Positions 3,125 to 9,364 are shown, counted from the stretch's first letter. The stretch is 63,014 nt of DNA from a candidate division WS1 bacterium (GCA_012522765.1 JAAYJW010000193.1:1-63014), one strand, 5' to 3'. Numbers and translations are program-made. The notes: generated by a model from the letters alone, not told the origin.

Positions 3125-3213
3125 CTCCTACGGCGTGAGCGTCTGCCGCACGATCCGGTTCCGCGCCATCAGGCGCGCGAGTCATGAGCGTCGGCTGCAT
3201 GGCTTTGTTCGGC
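3125..3213 (-). mobile_element. Integron attC-like recombination site (solitary, degenerate R')
   Basis: Minus strand reads GCCGAAC-aaagc-CATGCAGCCGAC...cgcgcc-TGAT-ggcgcg...GTGCGGCAGA-cgctcacgcc-GTAGGA, i.e. R'', L'', apical stem, L' and an R' lacking one T relative to GTTAGG. Confidence 0.6.
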
Positions 3214-4089
3214 ATGAATGGCAATTTCATCCGCCAGCCTGGGCAGCAGCACCTCTGGCAGACAATGGCCAAGCCCGTCAATTTCTATCAGTCGGGCATT
3301 TGGAAGCAAGTCTGCGATGTGTTTGCCATGGGGCGGTGGGTTAAGAGGGTCCTCAGAACCCTGAATCACCAGGGTCGGAATGCTCACTCCTCTTAACTCC
3401 TCCCCCCGTGAAAACGAAACCGGAGTTGCCAGTGCGTGATTCCCGGGCTGTGTCCAGCTTCCAGCATGATCTATACAGCGTCGCTCACGAAGTCGGAAGT
3501 CTGACTCGTCAAACTCAATCCTGTTCCCTGCAAGCAGACGCCATTCTCTAACACGGCGATCGAGCTCTTCTTCTATGCTTTCAGAGGGAGTTGCGCGCTC
3601 AGAAAGCGCTTCAAGCACATTCTTATTTGGAACAGGCAAACCGTCCGGCGAACTCTCTCCTGAAAAAGCCCGGGCAATATTGCCAACGAAGTCCACATCA
3701 AGCGCCGCTCCACACATAACCGTCAAGCTATGGAGTCGATCCGGATGATCCAGTGCAAGCACTTGCCCTAATGTCGCGCCCATCGACAAACCTACAATAT
3801 GTGCTTTGTTCACTTCCCATGCGTCGAGAACCGATACTGCATCTGACGCCAGATCCTCCACGGCATAGGGAGATTCATCAAAGTCAATGAAGGTAGAACG
3901 CCCCGTATCACGATGATCATACCGGATGACGCGATACCCTTTGGAAACGAGCAGCTCAACAAATTCATTCGGCCACATCAGTGCTGATGCATTGGCGCCA
4001 GCAACCAAAAGGATCGTGTCTATTCGACCCGATCCAACTGACTCACTCCAGAGTGATCTGCCGTCCACATCTACAAGCTTCTCTGGCAC
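3169..4089 (-). CDS. Alpha/beta hydrolase, RdmC/DnrP-like methylesterase family
   Basis: GLSMG nucleophile elbow, IRYDHRDTGRST, DP..P.PHGKH and GLGH motifs; GTG start at 4089 with GGAGG RBS; visibly more AT-rich than its neighbours. Confidence 0.85.
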   Translation of the reverse strand: MPEKLVDVDGRSLWSESVGSGRIDTILLVAGANASALMWPNEFVELLVSKGYRVIRYDHRDTGRSTFIDFDESPYAVEDLASDAVSVLDAWEVNKAHIVGLSMGATLGQVLALDHPDRLHSLTVMCGAALDVDFVGNIARAFSGESSPDGLPVPNKNVLEALSERATPSESIEEELDRRVREWRLLAGNRIEFDESDFRLRERRCIDHAGSWTQPGNHALATPVSFSRGEELRGVSIPTLVIQGSEDPLNPPPHGKHIADLLPNARLIEIDGLGHCLPEVLLPRLADEIAIHAEQSHAADAHDSRA

Positions 4090-4211
4090 GACAATCGTCC
4101 TCCACATAGGGCCCGATCGCGTGGGCATCCGGAGGATCACAGGCGATCCCTTCGGAGTTACTGCGCACTACAGCGCCTCAGACCACCGGCCCCCTCTTCA
4201 CCTCTCCCCCA

Positions 4212-5504
4212 TCACTCTTCGCTGAGACCGTAGATGCTCGCCCCGCGGTCAACAAGCTTCTCCCGCAGCGCGTCTACATCAACGGATCGGACGTCGGCCT
4301 CCTCCAGAGCCATCTCGGCGGCGCATCCGGCCGCTTCGCCTATTGCCATCACGATCGGCATAACGCGCATTGAGCTATGCGCCGCATGGTCGCAGGAGAT
4401 GCAGCGGGCGGCGATCAGCAGGTTGTCGAAGCCCCGCGGCGTGATGCAGCGGTACGGCACGTCGTAGGCCTCGCCCGGTGGCAGGCGCTTGATGACCGTG
4501 CCCGTCCCCGCCGGGTTATGTATGTCCACCGAGTACGATCCGCGCGCGATGCCATCATCGAACTTGTGCGCCTCGAGGACGTCATCCACGGTCAGCAGGT
4601 AGTCGCCCATGATGCGGCGGCTCTCGCGGATGCCGATCTGCGGCGCCATCTCCTCCAGCCACGCCTCCTCGAAGCCGGGCACGTGGTCAACGAGGAAGCG
4701 CACCATCTGCCGCACCTGCCGCCGGCCGATCAGTTCCGCGTCAGTCATATCCTCGGCATTGGTGGCGTCGTGCATAACCACGCGGGTGGTGTTGAAGTGT
4801 ACCTGGCGATCGTGGGTGGTGAAGAACTTCAGCACGTTCTCGCGCGGGTTGTCGATCTCGCCGCGCTCCTTTGCGGCGTCGTAGAGTTCGTTGATCTCCT
4901 GCCGCGAGGGCATCGCCTCAATGTTCACGTTCATCATCCGGAAGCAGAGCGTCATTGGCTGGCAGTGGCCATCCTCCTCGCGCCCGATCTCCACCTCCGC
5001 GCCCGCCCACGCCGCGAGATCGCCATCGCCGGTGCCATCGATGAAGATCTCGCCATGCACCTGTCGAAGGCCGGACTTGCTGAGGGTGGCGATGCTGGTG
5101 ATCGCTTCATCGGCGGTATCTACATCGGCCAGCATGGTGTGAAGCTGCAGCCTCACGCCCGCCTCGGCGCAAAAATCCTCAGCGACGAACTTGAACATTT
5201 CCTCATCGAACGCCGAGGGCTGTCTTGGCCCGCCCCAGCCGCCGTACTCATCGAGGCGCCCGGTGATGCGCTCGAAGAGCCCACGGATGATCGGCTTGCC
5301 GCCGGCCACCCACGGCATGAACGGGTTCACCAGCCCCGCGGTGGCCATGCCGCCGAGGAAACCGTAGCGTTCGATCAGCAAGACATCGGCGCCCTCCTCA
5401 GCAGCCGCGACTGCGGCGCATAGTCCACCCGGGCCGCCTCCCACCACGACCACTTCGGCCTCGTCGGCTACATCCAGCGCGTCATAGTTGATCGCATTGC
5501 TCAT
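4212..5504 (-). CDS. FAD-dependent oxidoreductase (FAD_oxidored family)
   Basis: VVVVGGGPGG Rossmann motif, ERYGFLGG..T.G.V, IDGTGDGD, RESRRI.G.Y.LT, YDVPYRC motifs. Confidence 0.9.
   Translation of the reverse strand: MSNAINYDALDVADEAEVVVVGGGPGGLCAAVAAAEEGADVLLIERYGFLGGMATAGLVNPFMPWVAGGKPIIRGLFERITGRLDEYGGWGGPRQPSAFDEEMFKFVAEDFCAEAGVRLQLHTMLADVDTADEAITSIATLSKSGLRQVHGEIFIDGTGDGDLAAWAGAEVEIGREEDGHCQPMTLCFRMMNVNIEAMPSRQEINELYDAAKERGEIDNPRENVLKFFTTHDRQVHFNTTRVVMHDATNAEDMTDAELIGRRQVRQMVRFLVDHVPGFEEAWLEEMAPQIGIRESRRIMGDYLLTVDDVLEAHKFDDGIARGSYSVDIHNPAGTGTVIKRLPPGEAYDVPYRCITPRGFDNLLIAARCISCDHAAHSSMRVMPIVMAIGEAAGCAAEMALEEADVRSVDVDALREKLVDRGASIYGLSEE
4228..4274 (-). repeat. 47-bp direct repeat, copy 2 (inside the current 3' end of the FAD oxidoreductase)
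   Basis: Identical to 2958-3004, offset 1270 bp. Confidence 0.95.
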
Positions 5505-5854
5505 CAGTCAGACTCCTCGGGTTCATTCAGATCTACTGTAATGTGCATGCCCTGTTCGGCGGCCTCACGCGCCAGCGTGTTCCACTCCTGCATCTCGTCA
5601 AACTGCTCCCGCGAGCAGGGTAGCAGCTCAACCTGGATATCCCATCGCCACTTCGCCTGAAGCTCCGGCAGCAGCTTGCTCAGCGGCTGGCCCGCGAACC
5701 TGTCGTCGAGCAGGACGAGGTTGAGGTCGGAATGAGGTCGTTCATCACCACGCTGGCGAGAGCCGAAGAAGATCGCTTCTTGGACGCTCACGCGGCGCAT
5801 GAAGGCGCGGATCTCCTCGATCAGTTCCTCTCGCGGTACTTTGCCTCGATCCAC
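5504..5854 (-). CDS. Minimal nucleotidyltransferase MNT3 (116 aa)
   Basis: FFGSRQRGDERPHSDLNLV motif; GTG start overlaps the HEPN3 3' end by 34 bp; stop overlaps the oxidoreductase ATG. Confidence 0.8.
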   Translation of the reverse strand: MDRGKVPREELIEEIRAFMRRVSVQEAIFFGSRQRGDERPHSDLNLVLLDDRFAGQPLSKLLPELQAKWRWDIQVELLPCSREQFDEMQEWNTLAREAAEQGMHITVDLNEPEESD

Positions 5855-6219
5855 TCGAAGGCCTCCTCTGCCAGTTCCACGGCCTCCTGCGCGTCCTCGG
5901 GTTCGAACTGCTCCGAGGGCGGACCGCCTGCGGCATCCACGTAGCGCGTGGACATGTAGAACGGGTTCAACCGCTTGATGATTTGCCAGATCGGCTCGGG
6001 TATCCTCCCGAAGATGTCGTGGATCATCGCCTGGAGTGAGTGCTCGCGTGGCATGGGGCGCTTGAGGAGGATCGGGTAGCCGCACTTGAGGAGCTTCTCG
6101 ATCGCCTGCCGTGCGTGGAAGATAGCGTGGTGGGGGATGACGTGCTGCGAGAGCAGGCGGGCCGCCTCAAGGTCAATGCGGGCGTCGGCGATCCATCCCT
6201 GTTCGCGTTCGGAGAGCAT
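5821..6219 (-). CDS. HEPN domain protein HEPN3 (COG2250-like, 132 aa)
   Basis: W..DA..DL.AA, F.A.QA.EK.LK, P.REH.L and Y..TRY motifs; ATG at 6219. Confidence 0.8.
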   Translation of the reverse strand: MLSEREQGWIADARIDLEAARLLSQHVIPHHAIFHARQAIEKLLKCGYPILLKRPMPREHSLQAMIHDIFGRIPEPIWQIIKRLNPFYMSTRYVDAAGGPPSEQFEPEDAQEAVELAEEAFEWIEAKYRERN

Positions 6220-6338
6220 AATAGTCAGGTGGCCTCGTGGGATTCGTCGTCGGCCATGATACGTATACCCTCGCGGTCGGCGATGCGCTCGATGCCGATC
6301 TGCTTGCGCGCCTCCTCGAACTCCTCGGGAGTGTAGGC
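6178..6338. repeat. 161-bp direct repeat, copy 1 (MNT 3' end plus HEPN 5' end)
   Basis: Matches 7068-7228 with about 6 mismatches counted by eye; offset 890 bp. Confidence 0.9.
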
Positions 6339-6575
6339 CAGAAGCTCGATGGGAGGACGCACAAGTCGCCACTCCAGATAGAGCGGTGGCAGTCGATCCA
6401 GAAAGCGCACGCCCTTGAAGCGGGAAGAGATGAGCATGAGGTCGGCGTCGCTGTGTCGCCGTTCCTCACCGCGGGCATATGAGCCGTAGAGGATCGCCTC
6501 CTCGACATCCACACGCCGCAAGTAATCGCGGATTTCCTCTACGAGCCTTTCTCGCGTAAGAGGGCGGTCGCCCAC
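6225..6575 (-). CDS. Minimal nucleotidyltransferase MNT2 (116 aa)
   Basis: LYGSYARGEERRHSDADL motif; GTG at 6575 gives the same length as MNT1 and MNT3 (the ORF track starts at ATG 6593). Confidence 0.85.
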   Translation of the reverse strand: MGDRPLTRERLVEEIRDYLRRVDVEEAILYGSYARGEERRHSDADLMLISSRFKGVRFLDRLPPLYLEWRLVRPPIELLAYTPEEFEEARKQIGIERIADREGIRIMADDESHEAT

Positions 6576-6946
6576 TGTAATGTCTTTGAGCATTGTCTCC
6601 TCGCCTCCTCCGCATCCGCTTTACAGTATTCCTCGCCTGGCACAGCCATCAGGCTGCTGCGATAGCGAGAGATCGTGTAGTGACGATCTAAGCCCGCGAG
6701 CGCCTCCAGAATCTCCTGGGGCACTTCCGTACCGGGCGGTACGCCGTCCGCGGCAAGCATTCGAAGGCTATGTGAATGCGGAGGTTCCTCACTATGCTGG
6801 TCCGCGTAGAGAGCTTTGAGTGCCTTCTCAGCGGCCTGTTGCGCTATGAAACACGCCCAGTTGTACTTCTCCTCGCGTATGTTGGAATGGACGGCCAGCA
6901 TGTCCTCCTGGGCCTGCCGCACCCATTCCTCAGCCTCCCGTCGCAT
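6539..6946 (-). CDS. HEPN domain protein HEPN2 (COG2250-like, 135 aa)
   Basis: W..QA.ED, YNWACF.AQQAAEKALKA, PPHSHSL and Y..SRY motifs. Confidence 0.85.
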   Translation of the reverse strand: MRREAEEWVRQAQEDMLAVHSNIREEKYNWACFIAQQAAEKALKALYADQHSEEPPHSHSLRMLAADGVPPGTEVPQEILEALAGLDRHYTISRYRSSLMAVPGEEYCKADAEEARRQCSKTLQWATALLREKGS

Positions 6947-7022
6947 CAGCTACGCAATCCTCCCGGTGACCGATAGCCTGAACCCATCCGCCGAGCCGCG
7001 GCAGTGGCGCGGATCAGGAGCA

Positions 7023-7109
7023 CTACATGTACCTGGCCTCAAGTACGTAAGCGGCTTCAAGCTGGGCGCGGGCGTCGGCGACCCATCCCCGTTCGCGTTC
7101 GGAGAGCAT
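7023..7109 (-). pseudogene. Truncated HEPN N-terminus (28 aa)
   Basis: MLSERERGWVADARAQLEAAYVLEARYM* is a paralog of the HEPN3 start MLSEREQGWIADARIDLEAA. Confidence 0.75.
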
Positions 7110-7228
7110 GATGGTCAGGTGGCCTCGTAGGATTCTTCGTCGGCCATGATACGTATACCCTCGCGGTCGGCGATGCGCTCGATGCCGATCTGCTTGCGCG
7201 CCTCCTCGAACTCCTCGGGAGTGTAGGC
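7068..7228. repeat. 161-bp direct repeat, copy 2
   Basis: Near-identical to 6178-6338. Confidence 0.9.
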
Positions 7229-7465
7229 AAGCGCTTCAAGGAATGGCAGCGATGGGTCCCACGCGTGATGCAGGGCGGCGAGGCGCTGGTGAGGTACCGT
7301 ACCTTCAAAGCGCCGCGAGATGACCATCAAGTCGACATCGCTGTCGCCCAGATTGGTTCCTTTGGCTCGCGAACCGTAGAGTATCGCTTGCCTGACCGCG
7401 ATCCGCGACATGAAGCGCCTGATTTCGTCGATTAGCTCTTCGCGTCGAAGGAGGCGGAGAGCCAC
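7115..7465 (-). CDS. Minimal nucleotidyltransferase MNT1 (116 aa)
   Basis: LYGSRAKGTNLGDSDVDL motif; GTG start with GGAG RBS. Confidence 0.85.
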   Translation of the reverse strand: MALRLLRREELIDEIRRFMSRIAVRQAILYGSRAKGTNLGDSDVDLMVISRRFEGTVPHQRLAALHHAWDPSLPFLEALAYTPEEFEEARKQIGIERIADREGIRIMADEESYEAT

Positions 7466-7502
7466 GATATTATCTCCTGCCGCTCTCGTTTTGGCACCGT
7501 CT

Positions 7503-7539
7503 GCCGTCCCCGATTGCCGATTGCCGCTTCCCGGCCGTT
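7503..7539 (-). repeat. GGCAATC / AACGGCCGGGAA motif cluster, the same family as the flanks of the four-helix-bundle gene
   Basis: Minus strand after the gatB stop reads aacggccgggaa-g-cggcaatcggcaatcggggacggc; both parts occur at 46681-46732. Confidence 0.7.
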
Positions 7540-8968
7540 ACAGCCTTTCCCGCAGCATCTCGTTCACCATGCCGGGGTTCGCCTGACCCTGTGTCTTCTT
7601 CATCACCTGGCCGACAAGGAAGCCGATCGCCTTGTCCTTGCCCTCACGCACATCCTGCACCGGGCCGGGGTTCTCGGCGATCACCTCGTCTATCACGCTC
7701 TCGAGCGCGCCGCTGTCGGAGATCTGCTCGAGGCCCTCCTCGGCGACTATCTCGCGCGCACTGCGCCCGGTCTCGAACATCGTCCCCAACACGTCCTTGG
7801 CGATTTTGCCCGAGATCACGTTCTCCTCGATCAGCGAGAGCAGTTCGGCGAGGTTGGCGCAGCTCACCGGGCTCCGCTCGATGCTGACGCCGGCTTCGTT
7901 GAGCAGGCTCATCAGGTCGCCCATCACCCAGTTGCTCACGGTCTTCGCAGCGCCCTCGAAGCGCTCGCAAGTCTCCTCGAAGTAGTCGGCCAGCGCCCGG
8001 GTCTCGGTCAGCACCCGCGCGTCATACTCGGGCACTTCGTACTGCTCGCAGAAGCGCTCGCAGCGCGCGGCGGGCAGTTCGGGGCAGCTATTGACGATCC
8101 CCTCGACCCACGCCCGGTCCGGCTCCAGCGGCACCAGGTCGGGCTCGGGGAAATACATGTAGTCGTCGGAGGTCTCTTTACGGCGCATCAGCGCGGTGAC
8201 GCCGTTGTTCTCATCCCAGCGGCGGGTCTGCTGGAATAGCTCGTCCTCGCGCCCCTCCGCGACAGTCTTGCGCTGGCGAGCGATCTCATACTTGACCGCC
8301 TCGAAGACCGAGCGGATCGAGTTGAGGTTCTTGATCTCGACTTTCGGCGTCGCCTCGCCGGTCTGCCGATCATTGAGGTTCACCGTCGGCTCCGCGCGCA
8401 GGGCGCCCTCCTCCATGTTGGCGGTGGACACGCCGATGCAGCGGAGGATCAGGCGAAGCTGCGTGAGGTACTCGCGGCACTGCTCGGCAGTCGTAAAGTC
8501 GGGCTCGGTGACGATCTCCATGAGCGGGATGCCGCCGCGATTGTACTCGACCAGCGTGGAGCCGGTCTGCAGGTGGATGTTCTTACCGGTGTCCTCTTCG
8601 AGGTGCGCGCGGCGGATGCGGATGCGCACCGGCTCACCATCCACCGTAAGGTCGATGGAGCCATCGTAGGTCAACGGCTCGTCATACTGCGAAACCTGAA
8701 AGTTCTTCGGCAGGTCGGGGTAGAAGTAGTTCTTGCGAGCGAAGCGACAGCGATCGGCGACCTTGCAGCCGAGCGCGGCTCCGGTGCGAATGACATACTC
8801 GACCGCCTTCCGGTTGGGCACCGGCAGTGACCCGGGGAGGCCGAGGCAGGTCGGGCAGACGTTCGAGTTCGGCTCCGCTCCGAACTGCGTCGAGCACGAA
8901 CAGAACATCTTCGATTCGGTGTCAAGCTGAACGTGAACTTCCAGACCGATCATAGGCTCCATAGCCAT
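7538..8968 (-). CDS. gatB: Asp-tRNA(Asn)/Glu-tRNA(Gln) amidotransferase subunit B
   Basis: IGLEVHVQL, RKNYFYPDLPK.FQ.SQ, HLEEDTGK, YNRGG.PL.EIVTEPD and C-terminal GQVMK motifs. Confidence 0.98.
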   Translation of the reverse strand: MAMEPMIGLEVHVQLDTESKMFCSCSTQFGAEPNSNVCPTCLGLPGSLPVPNRKAVEYVIRTGAALGCKVADRCRFARKNYFYPDLPKNFQVSQYDEPLTYDGSIDLTVDGEPVRIRIRRAHLEEDTGKNIHLQTGSTLVEYNRGGIPLMEIVTEPDFTTAEQCREYLTQLRLILRCIGVSTANMEEGALRAEPTVNLNDRQTGEATPKVEIKNLNSIRSVFEAVKYEIARQRKTVAEGREDELFQQTRRWDENNGVTALMRRKETSDDYMYFPEPDLVPLEPDRAWVEGIVNSCPELPAARCERFCEQYEVPEYDARVLTETRALADYFEETCERFEGAAKTVSNWVMGDLMSLLNEAGVSIERSPVSCANLAELLSLIEENVISGKIAKDVLGTMFETGRSAREIVAEEGLEQISDSGALESVIDEVIAENPGPVQDVREGKDKAIGFLVGQVMKKTQGQANPGMVNEMLRERL

Positions 8969-9163
8969 CAACAATCACCCTTGCGGCAGCAACTGAAGCG
9001 TCAGATGCGACGAAAGCAAACGCAGCGACGGCAGCGGCCCGTCGCTGACGGGCCTATGATACACCGGGCGCGGAGGCTTGTCGAGGGGGCAGGTTGCGAG
9101 ACGGCGCGGAGAGGGGCATAATCGTCACAGGCAGATCGAGTGAGGTCGAAGGAGGCACGGGCG

Positions 9164-9364
9164 ATGGCCGATGTGAAGGACAAGGCTCTTCAAGCGGATG
9201 AAAGCGCCTGCCATCAGGCGCATGACGTCGAGGGTTCCCCTGAGCCGTGGTCCGAGGAGAGGATCCGGCGTTGCGACGAGTGGATGAAGCGGTTGGTCGG
9301 TGCCATCGAGATGCCCTTTGAGGTGGACGTAGAGGACTACTTCCGGCGCGCCCGCGAGGAGTAG
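9164..9364 (+). CDS. Small acidic hypothetical protein (66 aa)
   Basis: AAGGAGG RBS before ATG 9164; fills the gap between gatB and the ArnT-like gene. Confidence 0.5.
   Translation: MADVKDKALQADESACHQAHDVEGSPEPWSEERIRRCDEWMKRLVGAIEMPFEVDVEDYFRRAREE

Follow-up and report, generated by a model that had tools for sequence, protein, structure and literature searches.

Neutralisation of a HEPN protein through AMPylation by an MNT has been shown only for Class I HepT/MntA pairs, with HEPNs of PF01934/PF08780 carrying the RX4HXY motif (Yao et al., 2020; PMC7641770). In MntA, the D39E/D41E changes abolish AMPylation and weaken neutralisation (PMC7641770). Class II HEPN/MNT pairs, known as "HEPN-T" (Anantharaman, 2013) and as COG2250/COG1708 (Makarova, 2009; PMC2701414), include T. 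thermophilus TT1696 (1UFB), S. tokodaii ST0689 (1WOL), and T. maritima TM0613 (1O3U). According to Yao et al. (2020; PMC7641770), Class II has no biochemical study, and its toxin–antitoxin (TA) status is unvalidated; our literature searches found no published experiments on any Class II HEPN/MNT pair.

Gene content and family assignment

The window, that is, the whole analysed stretch of 63,014 nucleotides, carries an array of HEPN and MNT genes behind gatB, originally predicted to be a stack of three divergent HEPN/MNT pairs that may serve as a stress or anti-phage module with expression tied to gatB. Its components, in window coordinates, are as follows.

7538..8974, minus strand: gatB (Asp/Glu-tRNA amidotransferase subunit B), upstream anchor; GatB_N PF02934, E 3e-109; GatB_Yqey PF02637, E 9e-55
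7466..7537, minus strand: gatB–MNT1 spacer, 72 nt, holding the MNT1 ribosome-binding site AGGAG (7479..7475)
7115..7465, minus strand: MNT1, 351 nt, GTG start, 116 aa; PF01909, E 1e-9, 38.8 bits
7026..7109, minus strand: HEPN remnant, a 27-codon ORF (MLSERERGWVADARAQLEAAYVLEARYM, then stop) matching HEPN profile positions 2-20 only
6947..7025, minus strand: non-coding filler between the remnant and HEPN2; no homologue detected
6539..6946, minus strand: HEPN2, 135 aa; PF05168, E 2e-24, 86.5 bits
6225..6593, minus strand: MNT2, 369 nt, 122 aa; PF01909, 39.4 bits
5821..6219, minus strand: HEPN3, 132 aa; PF05168, E 6e-18, 65.7 bits
5504..5854, minus strand: MNT3, 351 nt, 116 aa; PF01909, 21.0 bits, exactly the 21-bit cut-off
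4212..5504, minus strand: FAD-dependent oxidoreductase, downstream anchor; FAD_oxidored PF12831, E 1e-127
7051..7231, no strand: direct repeat copy A, comprising the MNT1 3' end, the junction, and the start of the HEPN remnant
6161..6341, no strand: direct repeat copy B, comprising the MNT2 3' end, the junction GAGGCCACCTGA-N5-ATG, and the start of HEPN3

Thus, the predicted gene order (MNT1, truncated HEPN, HEPN2, MNT2, HEPN3, MNT3) and the tight packing behind gatB are both seen. MNT2 shares 55 nt with HEPN2 and ends 5 nt short of HEPN3, MNT3 overlaps HEPN3 by 34 nt, and, as predicted, the MNT3 TGA and the oxidoreductase ATG have base 5504 in common; in relatives, too, these two genes abut or overlap. 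All genes of the window are separated by stop codons, and nucleotidyltransferase (NTase) and HEPN domains never occur here in one polypeptide. The length of 351 nt, initially ascribed to all three MNTs, holds for MNT1 and MNT3. The MNT2 ATG at 6593 is preceded by a GGAGG Shine-Dalgarno sequence, and the N-terminus that it adds, MLKDITVGDRPL, is kept in the orthologues of the related loci L176, L198, L201, and L221; therefore, we assign 369 nt (122 aa) to MNT2, and 351 nt is obtained only by starting at the internal GTG 6575.

The statement that the array has no obvious promoter agrees with our search, as one weak sigma-70-like match (9/12) lies at 7497..7469, and the three matches found are within chance (1.6±1.3 expected). 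No terminator-like site was found on the minus strand from gatB to the oxidoreductase, and the 72-nt spacer has no significant fold (z -0.8). The whole block is presumably co-transcribed.

The original prediction also raised an assembly artefact, such as a chimeric or mis-collapsed repeat region. A 181-nt repeat with copies as similar as these (92% identity) could conceivably confuse an assembler, but the same gap-free array recurs in five contigs that were assembled independently within at least three projects (JGI, ENA, and Logan; different samples), with identities of 100%, 99.9%, 99.9%, 97.9%, and 99.9%, and one of the five represents a strain differing at 62 sites. Since these independent assemblies carry the same layout, the probability of an artefact is practically negligible.

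Profile searches confirmed the predicted domain identities. HEPN2 and HEPN3 score far above the gathering cut-off of 22 bits for PF05168 and match neither PF01934 nor PF08780, and all three MNTs match PF01909. The histidine of RX4H is absent: the corresponding segments read RYRSSL in HEPN2 and RYVDAA in HEPN3, with no His 4-6 residues past the Arg. HEPN2 retains the family-invariant Q, K, H59, R94, and Y95, and HEPN3 retains all Class II-invariant residues (Q, K, H, R, and Y), with H60 encoded at 6042..6040 and R92-Y93 at 5946..5941; the R and Y are invariant in an alignment of 66 HEPN sequences. The PDB relatives of the HEPNs are TT1696, ST0689, and TM0613; HEPN2 matches 1UFB with E 1e-15, and the AF2 model of HEPN3 (pLDDT 95.9) has the HEPN helical-bundle fold with TM 0.83-0.86 to TT1696 (1UFB). 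ANT(3'')(9) is present among the weak fold matches; the best ones, by fold and by sequence alike, are HEPN proteins that stand alone rather than aminoglycoside NTases. The nearest relatives of HEPN2 are HEPNs found between gatB and HEPN3 in L176 and L198 (55-56%). By these sequence features (PF05168, no RX4H), all HEPNs of the array are assigned to Class II, and not to type VII HepT/MntA. The RNase/MNT mechanism that the original prediction treated as established was shown for Class I HepT/MntA only and is not supported for these HEPNs.

MNT1 and MNT2 have the intact GS-x10-DxD motif (GSRAKGTNLGDSDVDL, GS…DVD, and GSYARGEERRHSDADL, GS…DAD, respectively). In MNT3, GS is followed by D43-L-N45 in place of DxD (Asn codon 5722..5720), and N45 aligns to the second catalytic Asp of the solved MNTs 8XEH and HI0073. 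Asn occupies this position, as DxN or NxN, in all 43 MNT3 protein clusters drawn from a database of 5.8 billion proteins, and DxN is found in 15/15 loci and 10/10 metagenome loci, as opposed to DxD in all 92 readable MNT motifs of other Class II loci. Elsewhere in the MNT3 family, G31, S32, and D72 are invariant, and D43 nearly so. Because the DxD catalytic dyad is missing, MNT3 is probably unable to AMPylate anything; residual or altered catalysis may persist, as Asn can ligate metal and the rest of the active site is conserved. With the NCBIfam MntA equivalog model NF047752, the MNTs of the array reach 27.0, 26.2, and 22.7 bits, whereas the cut-off is 60. They match two candidate models of PADLOC, PDC-S09 and PDC-M05A, with E 1e-6 to 1e-11, while the HEPNs match no PADLOC model and the array contains no complete known defence system.

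Conservation of the HEPN3–MNT3 pair

The suggested Armatimonadota origin of the window is supported. Comparison of the regions downstream of gatB found HEPN3–MNT3 flanked by gatB and the oxidoreductase in at least 15 Armatimonadota genomes at the species level and in 11 metagenome contigs. The pair is syntenic in all 26 related loci, most of which were found via HEPN3 itself, an ascertainment bias by which clade genomes lacking the pair could be missed; an independent search based on the oxidoreductase recovered the pair in 5/5 clade genomes. All relatives with the respective flank have gatB orthologues (71-88% identity) ahead of the HEPN/MNT locus and oxidoreductase orthologues (64-87%) behind MNT3. 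In 80 gatB loci of other lineages (886 kb), we found no HEPN and one MNT. Hence the proposed link to gatB holds as far as conserved adjacency is concerned. At the same time, synteny in the clade covers the entire stretch PMT–gatB…oxidoreductase…URO-D; therefore, adjacency alone is no proof of a functional link.

The pair has diverged together with gatB. The Mantel correlation with gatB is 0.96 for HEPN3 and 0.93 for MNT3, values reached by none of 2000 permutations, and HEPN3 and MNT3 are each monophyletic, with congruent trees. The mean p-distances are 0.225 for gatB, 0.26 for HEPN3, and 0.34 for MNT3, and dS is alike across the four genes. The dN/dS values are 0.05-0.17 for HEPN3 (0.29 in one pair), 0.06-0.19 for gatB, and 0.14-0.37 for MNT3, and within-species changes in MNT3 are mostly synonymous. 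HEPN3 has 47 full-length protein clusters (64-89% identity), nearly all of 132 aa, and 46 columns of its alignment are invariant. An outgroup has the order gatA-gatB-HEPN-MNT, with a normal DxD in the MNT. Judged by synteny and divergence, HEPN3–MNT3 is an ancient pair inherited with its neighbouring genes across an entire class of Armatimonadota, and its distribution is not the patchy, horizontally mobile one known for Class II modules (Makarova, 2009; PMC2701414), although the modules in front of it do turn over.

A TA module would not typically be retained vertically for so long, with its putative toxin under such strong constraint. A domesticated, non-toxic function accounts for this pattern equally well or better.

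The variable slot and the direct repeat

The region between gatB and HEPN3, which we call the slot, varies among the related loci. Where fully visible, it is empty in five loci, holds a solo MNT in two, a fused MNT-HEPN in four (L179, L180, L183, and L188; the fusion confirmed by Pfam in L179 and L183), and a HEPN→MNT pair in five. The slot content of the window is the largest seen among these loci. MNT1 groups with the MNTs in the slot of L190, L181, L183, L180, and L186 as an MNT1-type lineage, and MNT2 belongs to an MNT2-type lineage with L176, L179, and L188. Consequently, the three pairs are not the equivalent units of the original prediction: by comparison with relatives, occupancy of the slot by MNT1, the remnant, and HEPN2-MNT2 is specific to the lineage, and HEPN3–MNT3 is the ancient syntenic core.

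The two repeat copies are 92% identical over 181 nt and 96% identical over a 164-nt core. The remnant starts with ∼22 N-terminal codons of the HEPN3 type, followed by unrelated sequence and a stop, and its homology to HEPN3 orthologues ends near 7042. It is identical in strain L084, which is 2% diverged and shows mosaic SNP tracts. The filler 6947..7025 has no HEPN signal in any frame and no blastn match in the related loci. As the repeat spans the end of an MNT and the start of HEPN3, the truncated HEPN is most readily read as a relic of recombination. Most related loci, including 3/5 of those with an empty slot, have the junction motif GAGG[AC]C[ACG]C[CG]TGA-N3-5-ATG ahead of HEPN3.

Explanations of the locus and comparison with known systems

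The explanation that we consider probable is a composite Class II locus, made of a vertically inherited HEPN3→MNT3 core and a variable slot that collects modules and bears a recombination scar. In this scheme, HEPN3→MNT3 would already have stood beside gatB in a deep Armatimonadota ancestor and then have passed vertically, between gatB and the FAD oxidoreductase, across Ca. Zipacnadia-like genomes, under purifying selection as strong as that on gatB. The core MNT has fixed Asp→Asn in the metal-binding DxD dyad; its nucleotidyl transfer is thus predicted to be lost or drastically altered, and its action on HEPN3 would depend on stoichiometric binding (type II-like) instead of AMPylation. The slot, extending from gatB to the conserved translation-initiation junction of HEPN3 (GAGGNCNCCTGA-N3-5-ATG), gains and loses further Class II modules whose MNTs retain GS-x10-DxD. 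In this genome, it holds MNT1, HEPN2→MNT2, and the 27-codon remnant, a probable relic of another HEPN3 copy; together with the 181-nt repeat, this relic is the likely scar left when recombination joined two array haplotypes where the MNT end meets the HEPN3 start. The HEPNs are putative effectors, RNA-targeting or RNA-binding, and may be neutralised by the DxD MNTs through nucleotidyl transfer to the Tyr that is invariant in the R-Y motif.

Alternatively, HEPN3–MNT3 may be non-toxic and serve the host as a heteromeric regulator that binds RNA or nucleotides and includes a pseudo-enzyme MNT, possibly acting on the downstream oxidoreductase operon or on gatA/gatB-linked tRNA and translation functions. 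We regard this as a possible but rather doubtful reading, and we are just as hesitant about its corollary that selfish or defensive cassette behaviour is confined to the slot modules. Class-wide synteny, co-divergence with gatB, and a dN/dS of about 0.1 on the supposed toxin are consistent with domestication, as are the invariable loss of the catalytic Asp in MNT3, the one-base MNT3 stop/oxidoreductase ATG overlap with its counterparts in relatives, and the outgroup pair directly behind gatA-gatB; moreover, inactive HEPN domains are known as RNA-binding regulators, e.g., MtlR (Anantharaman, 2013). However, HEPN3 keeps Q, K, H, R, and Y, with nothing marking inactivity, the synteny extends to the neighbourhood as a whole, and the regulatory target is putative. 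In a version that we put forward tentatively, the core pair is a domesticated complex of a Class II HEPN with a pseudo-nucleotidyltransferase, and the junction is a recombination trap capturing HEPN/MNT cassettes and occasionally other genes. If this is true, DxN MNTs form a new functional subfamily with a host function fixed clade-wide (Zipacnadia-like) beside gatB, and the locus is a chromosomal site of cassette accretion with a tamed TA module at its centre.

It is very unlikely that the array is, as implied by the original prediction, simply three independent mobile TA modules stacked behind gatB by chance and type VII-like, each MNT AMPylating its HEPN. Thermophiles and archaea are indeed rich in Class II modules, which are mobile there (PMC2701414), MNT1 and MNT2 keep GS-x10-DxD, the MNTs match candidate-defence models of PADLOC, and slot content turns over. 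But MNT3 lacks DxD, the HEPNs lack RX4HXY and are not PF01934, the MntA model yields 23-27 bits against a cut-off of 60, and gatB loci of other lineages have no HEPN. For the core pair, such a stack is contradicted by the gatB-linked synteny and co-divergence in all 26 related loci. The chance also seems slight that the locus encodes a two-subunit nucleotidyltransferase rather than a TA system, with HEPN as the substrate-binding subunit (cf. kanamycin nucleotidyltransferase) and an antibiotic, a metabolite, or an RNA end as the substrate. Makarova (2009; PMC2701414) left this possibility open for MNT-HEPN, and both the KNTase-like fused MNT-HEPN proteins in the slot of relatives and the weak ANT(3'')(9) match point in this direction; against it, the DxN MNT of the core is unlikely to catalyse transfer, the best matches are stand-alone HEPN proteins and not aminoglycoside NTases, and neither a resistance nor a biosynthetic context is present.

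Like type VII HepT/MntA, the composite locus that we favour has a HEPN-superfamily protein adjoining a minimal Pol-beta nucleotidyltransferase and a conserved Tyr beside a conserved Arg, a possible AMP acceptor, and the order MNT2→HEPN3 mimics mntA→hepT. Unlike type VII, its HEPN family is PF05168, without RX4HXY, rather than PF01934/PF08780, its MNTs fall far below the MntA equivalog cut-off, HEPN usually comes first, and MNT3 lacks the DxD needed for AMPylation. The single-ORF MNT-HEPN genes in the slot of relatives resemble FhepTA (PMC13000451) and KNTase-like fusions, whereas the genes of the window are separate; FhepTA, moreover, belongs to the Class I type, has RX4HXY, and resides on mobile elements. 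The closest likeness is to Class II modules, with which the array shares the Pfam families PF05168 and PF01909, the fold (TM 0.83 to 1UFB), the invariant Q, K, H, and R-Y without RX4H, small genes that overlap and run in one direction, the prevailing HEPN→MNT order (69/80 surveyed loci), and, in MNT1 and MNT2, GS-x10-DxD. It differs from them in that the core pair is neither patchy nor mobile but syntenic and co-diverging with gatB across a bacterial class, that the core MNT is invariantly DxN, compared with 92/92 readable DxD motifs elsewhere, and that the modules abut in one packed array, where one HEPN has an MNT on both sides.

Gene layout, transcription and family assignment

The gene map and Pfam searches bore out the gene order read earlier from the sequence, including the truncated HEPN and the overlap of the MNT3 stop with the oxidoreductase ATG. 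Pfam assigned PF05168 to HEPN2 and HEPN3, and PF01909 to MNT1, MNT2 and MNT3.

Features of the gatB block, in minus-strand order
8974..7538, minus: gatB
72 nt, minus: spacer between gatB and MNT1
7465..7115, minus: MNT1, GTG start, 116 aa; PF01909 (NTP_transf_2), E ~1e-9
7109..7026, minus: HEPN remnant, a 27-codon ORF beginning 5 nt past the MNT1 stop
79 nt, minus: non-coding stretch from the remnant to HEPN2
6946..6539, minus: HEPN2; PF05168 (HEPN), E 2e-24
6593..6225, minus: MNT2, overlapping HEPN2 by 55 nt; PF01909, E ~1e-9
6219..5821, minus: HEPN3, beginning 5 nt past MNT2; PF05168, E 6e-18
5854..5504, minus: MNT3, overlapping HEPN3 by 34 nt; PF01909, 21.0 bits, exactly the cut-off
5504..4212, minus: PF12831 FAD-dependent oxidoreductase; its ATG and the MNT3 TGA have base 5504 in common

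All three MNTs had been given as 351 nt, which does not hold for MNT2, as it has this length only when read from an internal GTG. Since a GGAGG Shine-Dalgarno sequence precedes its ATG at 6593 and four orthologues share its N-terminus, MLKDITVGDRPL, we take MNT2 to be 369 nt long. The array is not an assembly artefact: five independently assembled contigs, found via the HEPN2 protein in JGI, ENA anaerobic digester and Logan data, give one gap-free layout at 97.9–100% identity. The contig L084, from a diverged strain of the window species (97.9% identity), differs from the window by 62 substitutions, none of them in the HEPN remnant, and 0 indels.

The gene spacing from gatB to the oxidoreductase (overlaps of 55, 34 and 1 nt, two gaps of 5 nt, one of 79 nt, and the 72-nt gatB spacer) would permit a single transcript through the whole block, and a terminator scan found no terminator-like sites on its minus strand. 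The absence of an obvious promoter was confirmed, as the promoter scan signal did not exceed chance. Its sole match, a weak sigma-70-like GTGCCA-17-GATAAT (7469–7497, minus strand), is most likely due to chance; its −10 element is separated from the MNT1 GTG by just 3 nt and overlaps the spacer following the Shine-Dalgarno sequence. Folding of the gatB–MNT1 spacer gave no structure signal beyond chance, and an Rfam search of 4000–9300 at E ≤ 0.1 yielded no match. Base composition gives no sign of a foreign origin of the array, as its GC content is merely 1–5 points lower than that of the flanks. Farther downstream, an alpha/beta-hydrolase gene (3169–4140, minus strand) has a GC content of about 51–53% versus about 65% in its flanks. 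Every related locus lacks it at this site and has different genes after the oxidoreductase, e.g., one encoding a TPR protein and then URO-D; the hydrolase gene is probably a recent horizontal insertion.

Class II HEPN/MNT modules rank among the most abundant gene pairs of archaea and thermophilic bacteria. HEPN2 and HEPN3 belong to this family, described as "HEPN-T" by Anantharaman et al. (2013; PMC3710099) and as "Class II HEPN/MNT" by Yao et al. (2020; PMC7641770). According to the latter, Class II HEPNs lack the RX4HXY motif, while the adjoining MNTs retain GSX10DXD; the class had no biochemical study, and its toxin–antitoxin (TA) status awaited validation (PMC7641770). In the literature searched, we found no experimental work on Class II pairs after 2020, and neither HEPN nor toxins nor gatB come up in the description paper of Zipacnadia. 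Both HEPNs are akin to the structural-genomics proteins TT1696 (1UFB), ST0689 (1WOL) and TM0613 (1O3U). The AlphaFold model of HEPN3 (pLDDT 95.9) superimposes on 1UFB with TM 0.83–0.86, while HepT structures are weak matches. Residues invariant across 66 family members (Q, K, H of xHSL, and R-Y) are all retained in HEPN2 and HEPN3, and neither has a histidine 4–6 residues past the arginine (RYRSSL and RYVDAA, respectively). Among 80 unrelated Class II loci, the order was HEPN→MNT in 69, MNT→HEPN in nine and undetermined in two, and therefore HEPN2→MNT2 and HEPN3→MNT3 are canonical pairs. The three stacked pairs proposed earlier are not alike: only HEPN3–MNT3 is a conserved core, the other members lying in a variable slot between gatB and HEPN3.

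The core pair and the active site of MNT3

Among loci located through HEPN3 relatives, the core pair, in the context gatB–[slot]–HEPN3–MNT3–oxidoreductase, occurs in 15 species-representative Armatimonadota genomes (Ca. Zipacnadia, Armatimonadia and "WS1", with gatB 71–87% identical to that of the window) as well as on another 11 metagenome contigs. HEPN3 and MNT3 overlap by a constant 34 nt across related loci. A separate search that started from the oxidoreductase, which reaches the closest relatives only, recovered the pair in all five clade genomes found. As a control, 80 gatB loci of other lineages (886 kb; relatives from the gatB search, at ≤52% identity among the matches listed) contained no HEPN and one MNT. 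Full-length HEPN3 formed 47 protein clusters at 64–89% identity, the named ones annotated as Armatimonadota; nearly all are 132 aa long (two are 129 aa and two 131 aa), and their alignment has 46 invariant columns.

The pair has evolved together with its neighbors. Distances of HEPN3 and MNT3 correlate with those of gatB (Mantel r 0.96 and 0.93, respectively, equalled by none of 2000 permutations), and the neighbor-joining trees of both are monophyletic and mutually congruent. Mean p-distances were 0.225 for gatB, 0.26 for HEPN3, 0.34 for MNT3 and 0.20 for the oxidoreductase, with dN/dS of 0.06–0.19, 0.05–0.17 (one pair 0.29), 0.14–0.37 and 0.07–0.18, respectively; dS was alike for the four genes within each genome pair. 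By these sequence measures, the core pair with its DxN-type MNT is retained class-wide under selection that appears as strong as that on its essential neighbor gene.

The distinguishing feature of MNT3 is its active site. In the alignment, MNT1 and MNT2 read GS-x10-D-x-D, and MNT3 reads GSRQRGDERPHS-D-L-N; in a profile of 13 MNT3 orthologues, N45 lines up with the second DxD Asp in the solved MNTs 8XEH and HI0073. In these orthologues G31, S32 and the third carboxylate D72 are invariant, and D43 nearly so. The Asn was observed in 15/15 syntenic genomes (one of them with NxN), 10/10 metagenome loci and all 43 clusters returned by a search of a database of 5.8 billion proteins. By comparison, 92 of the 93 readable MNT motifs from 80 generic Class II loci and the window are DxD, the sole DxN being MNT3 itself. 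A single-sequence AF2 model of MNT3 (pLDDT 60) was too poor for use. In Shewanella MntA, both Asp residues bind both Mg2+ ions, and the D39E/D41E substitutions abolish AMPylation and weaken neutralization (PMC7641770). We infer that nucleotidyl transfer by MNT3 is lost or strongly altered. Since the Asn and the rest of the site are invariant, MNT3 seems to be specialized rather than decaying.

Two distant loci bear on the age and rarity of this change. An unrelated low-GC metagenome contig (L219:222-826) encodes a HEPN that shares 45% identity with HEPN3 and, after it, an MNT with D-V-N; therefore, DxN has at least one occurrence beyond the gatB-linked clade and is rare but not unique. A distant Armatimonadota genome with a 55% identical gatB (L191:3021-6674) has the order gatA (Amidase)–gatB–HEPN–MNT with the canonical DxD, which means that the gatB adjacency is older than the DxN change.

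The variable slot and the HEPN remnant

Among the related loci, the slot is empty in L177, L170, L184, L173 and L200; holds a solo MNT in L181 and L185; a single-ORF MNT–HEPN fusion in L179, L180, L183 and L188 (confirmed by Pfam in L179 and L183); and a HEPN→MNT pair in L176, L186, L190, L198 and L221. The slot MNTs form two lineages, of which the window has one member each; this combination is absent from every other locus, and the window array is the largest seen. The fusions (L179:5152-5997, L183:5036-5854, L180:4002-4865 and L188 at ~1633–2466) are of the Class II type and have an intact DxD and intact HEPN H and R-Y, except that the L188 HEPN reads TRN (R-N). In L180, an ORF of 206 aa (5377–5997) that contains LEVGPGPG, a class I SAM-methyltransferase-like motif, lies between the fusion and HEPN3, so the slot is not confined to HEPN/MNT genes. 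The degenerate solo MNT of L185 (5653–5997) reads S-G-V-D-L, with the first Asp gone and a low profile score, and looks like an accessory MNT in decay.

The window carries a 181-nt direct repeat (6161–6341 and 7051–7231; 92% identical, 96% over a 164-nt core) that runs from the last ~38 MNT codons through the stop and the 5-nt spacer into a HEPN3-type gene, of which it includes the first ~20 codons; MNT1 and MNT2 are 61% identical overall, with nearly identical C-termini. The remnant ORF, MLSERERGWVADARAQLEAAYVLEARYM*, matches the HEPN profile at positions 2–20 only and resembles HEPN3 only up to about 7042. No HEPN-like sequence follows it in any frame, and a search of 6947–7041 (95 nt) in all frames and in related loci found neither a further remnant nor any other match. 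Because the repeat is 96% identical and the remnant is of the HEPN3 type, not a distinct paralogue, we interpret the remnant as a recombination join. The possibility that the truncated HEPN is a partner of MNT1 that decayed in place is rejected on the same two observations. The simplest history would be a join of two array haplotypes, gatB–MNT1–HEPN3… and …HEPN2–MNT2–HEPN3…, which would have left the first HEPN3 copy with only ~22 codons.

A motif, GAGG[AC]C[ACG]C[CG]TGA-N3-5-ATG, marks the HEPN3 start in most related loci; in the window it occupies 6220–6236 and 7110–7126. Of the five empty-slot loci, L177, L170 and L200 have it, L184 has a partial version and L173 lacks it; it is also missing from L199, and is present in L180 behind the methyltransferase-like ORF. 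Wherever it exists, the upstream ORF (an MNT, a fused MNT–HEPN or the methyltransferase-like ORF of L180) terminates inside it. We read this junction motif as a conserved translation-initiation region of HEPN3 that also serves as a homology patch. Comparison of L084 with the window over 5049–7635 shows a mosaic: the stretch between the gatB 3' end and HEPN3 diverges by about 0.5%, a 133-nt block within MNT3 (5672–5804) by 13%, the next 208 nt by 0% and the oxidoreductase by 7%, almost all differences being synonymous. Such a pattern suggests short tracts of recombination or gene conversion, ongoing within the species.

Possible function and comparison with known systems

The array has two Class II HEPNs, both intact, and three MNTs, two with full catalytic motifs and one with DxN; its genes are tightly coupled in translation, its core is deeply conserved and its slot turns over. 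Conservation and the analogy to Class I (HepT/MntA) suggest that the HEPNs could be effectors, their invariant H and R-Y forming a site that acts on or binds RNA. The invariant Tyr could be nucleotidylated by MNT1 and MNT2, and MNT3 may keep HEPN3 in check through binding. Strong constraint across class-level divergence argues that the host gains from HEPN3, and that addiction alone does not explain its retention. The main rival explanation, that the core pair has been fully domesticated into a non-toxic regulator, seems to us unlikely, although it deserves serious consideration.

To our knowledge, neither the TA status of Class II pairs nor their mode of neutralization has ever been tested. 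With two HEPNs, two MNTs with the intact dyad and one with a fixed Asp→Asn change, the locus is a natural experiment in about 2 kb, compact and well suited to testing whether Class II neutralization needs nucleotidyl transfer. It also records a resident module seeding an array that grows and shrinks at one chromosomal site.

The window MNTs differ from HepT/MntA, scoring 23–27 bits on the NCBIfam MntA equivalog (cut-off 60), and match PADLOC only at the candidate models PDC-S09 and PDC-M05A; HEPN2 and HEPN3 had no matches among NCBIfam and PADLOC models. The array members belong to a known, biochemically uncharacterized family. What is new is the class-wide, gatB-anchored, vertically inherited core pair, the invariant DxN MNT of this core, and the cassette-accreting slot marked by a conserved junction. 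The fusions found in this slot belong to Class II, whereas the fused systems described previously (FhepTA) belong to Class I (PMC13000451).
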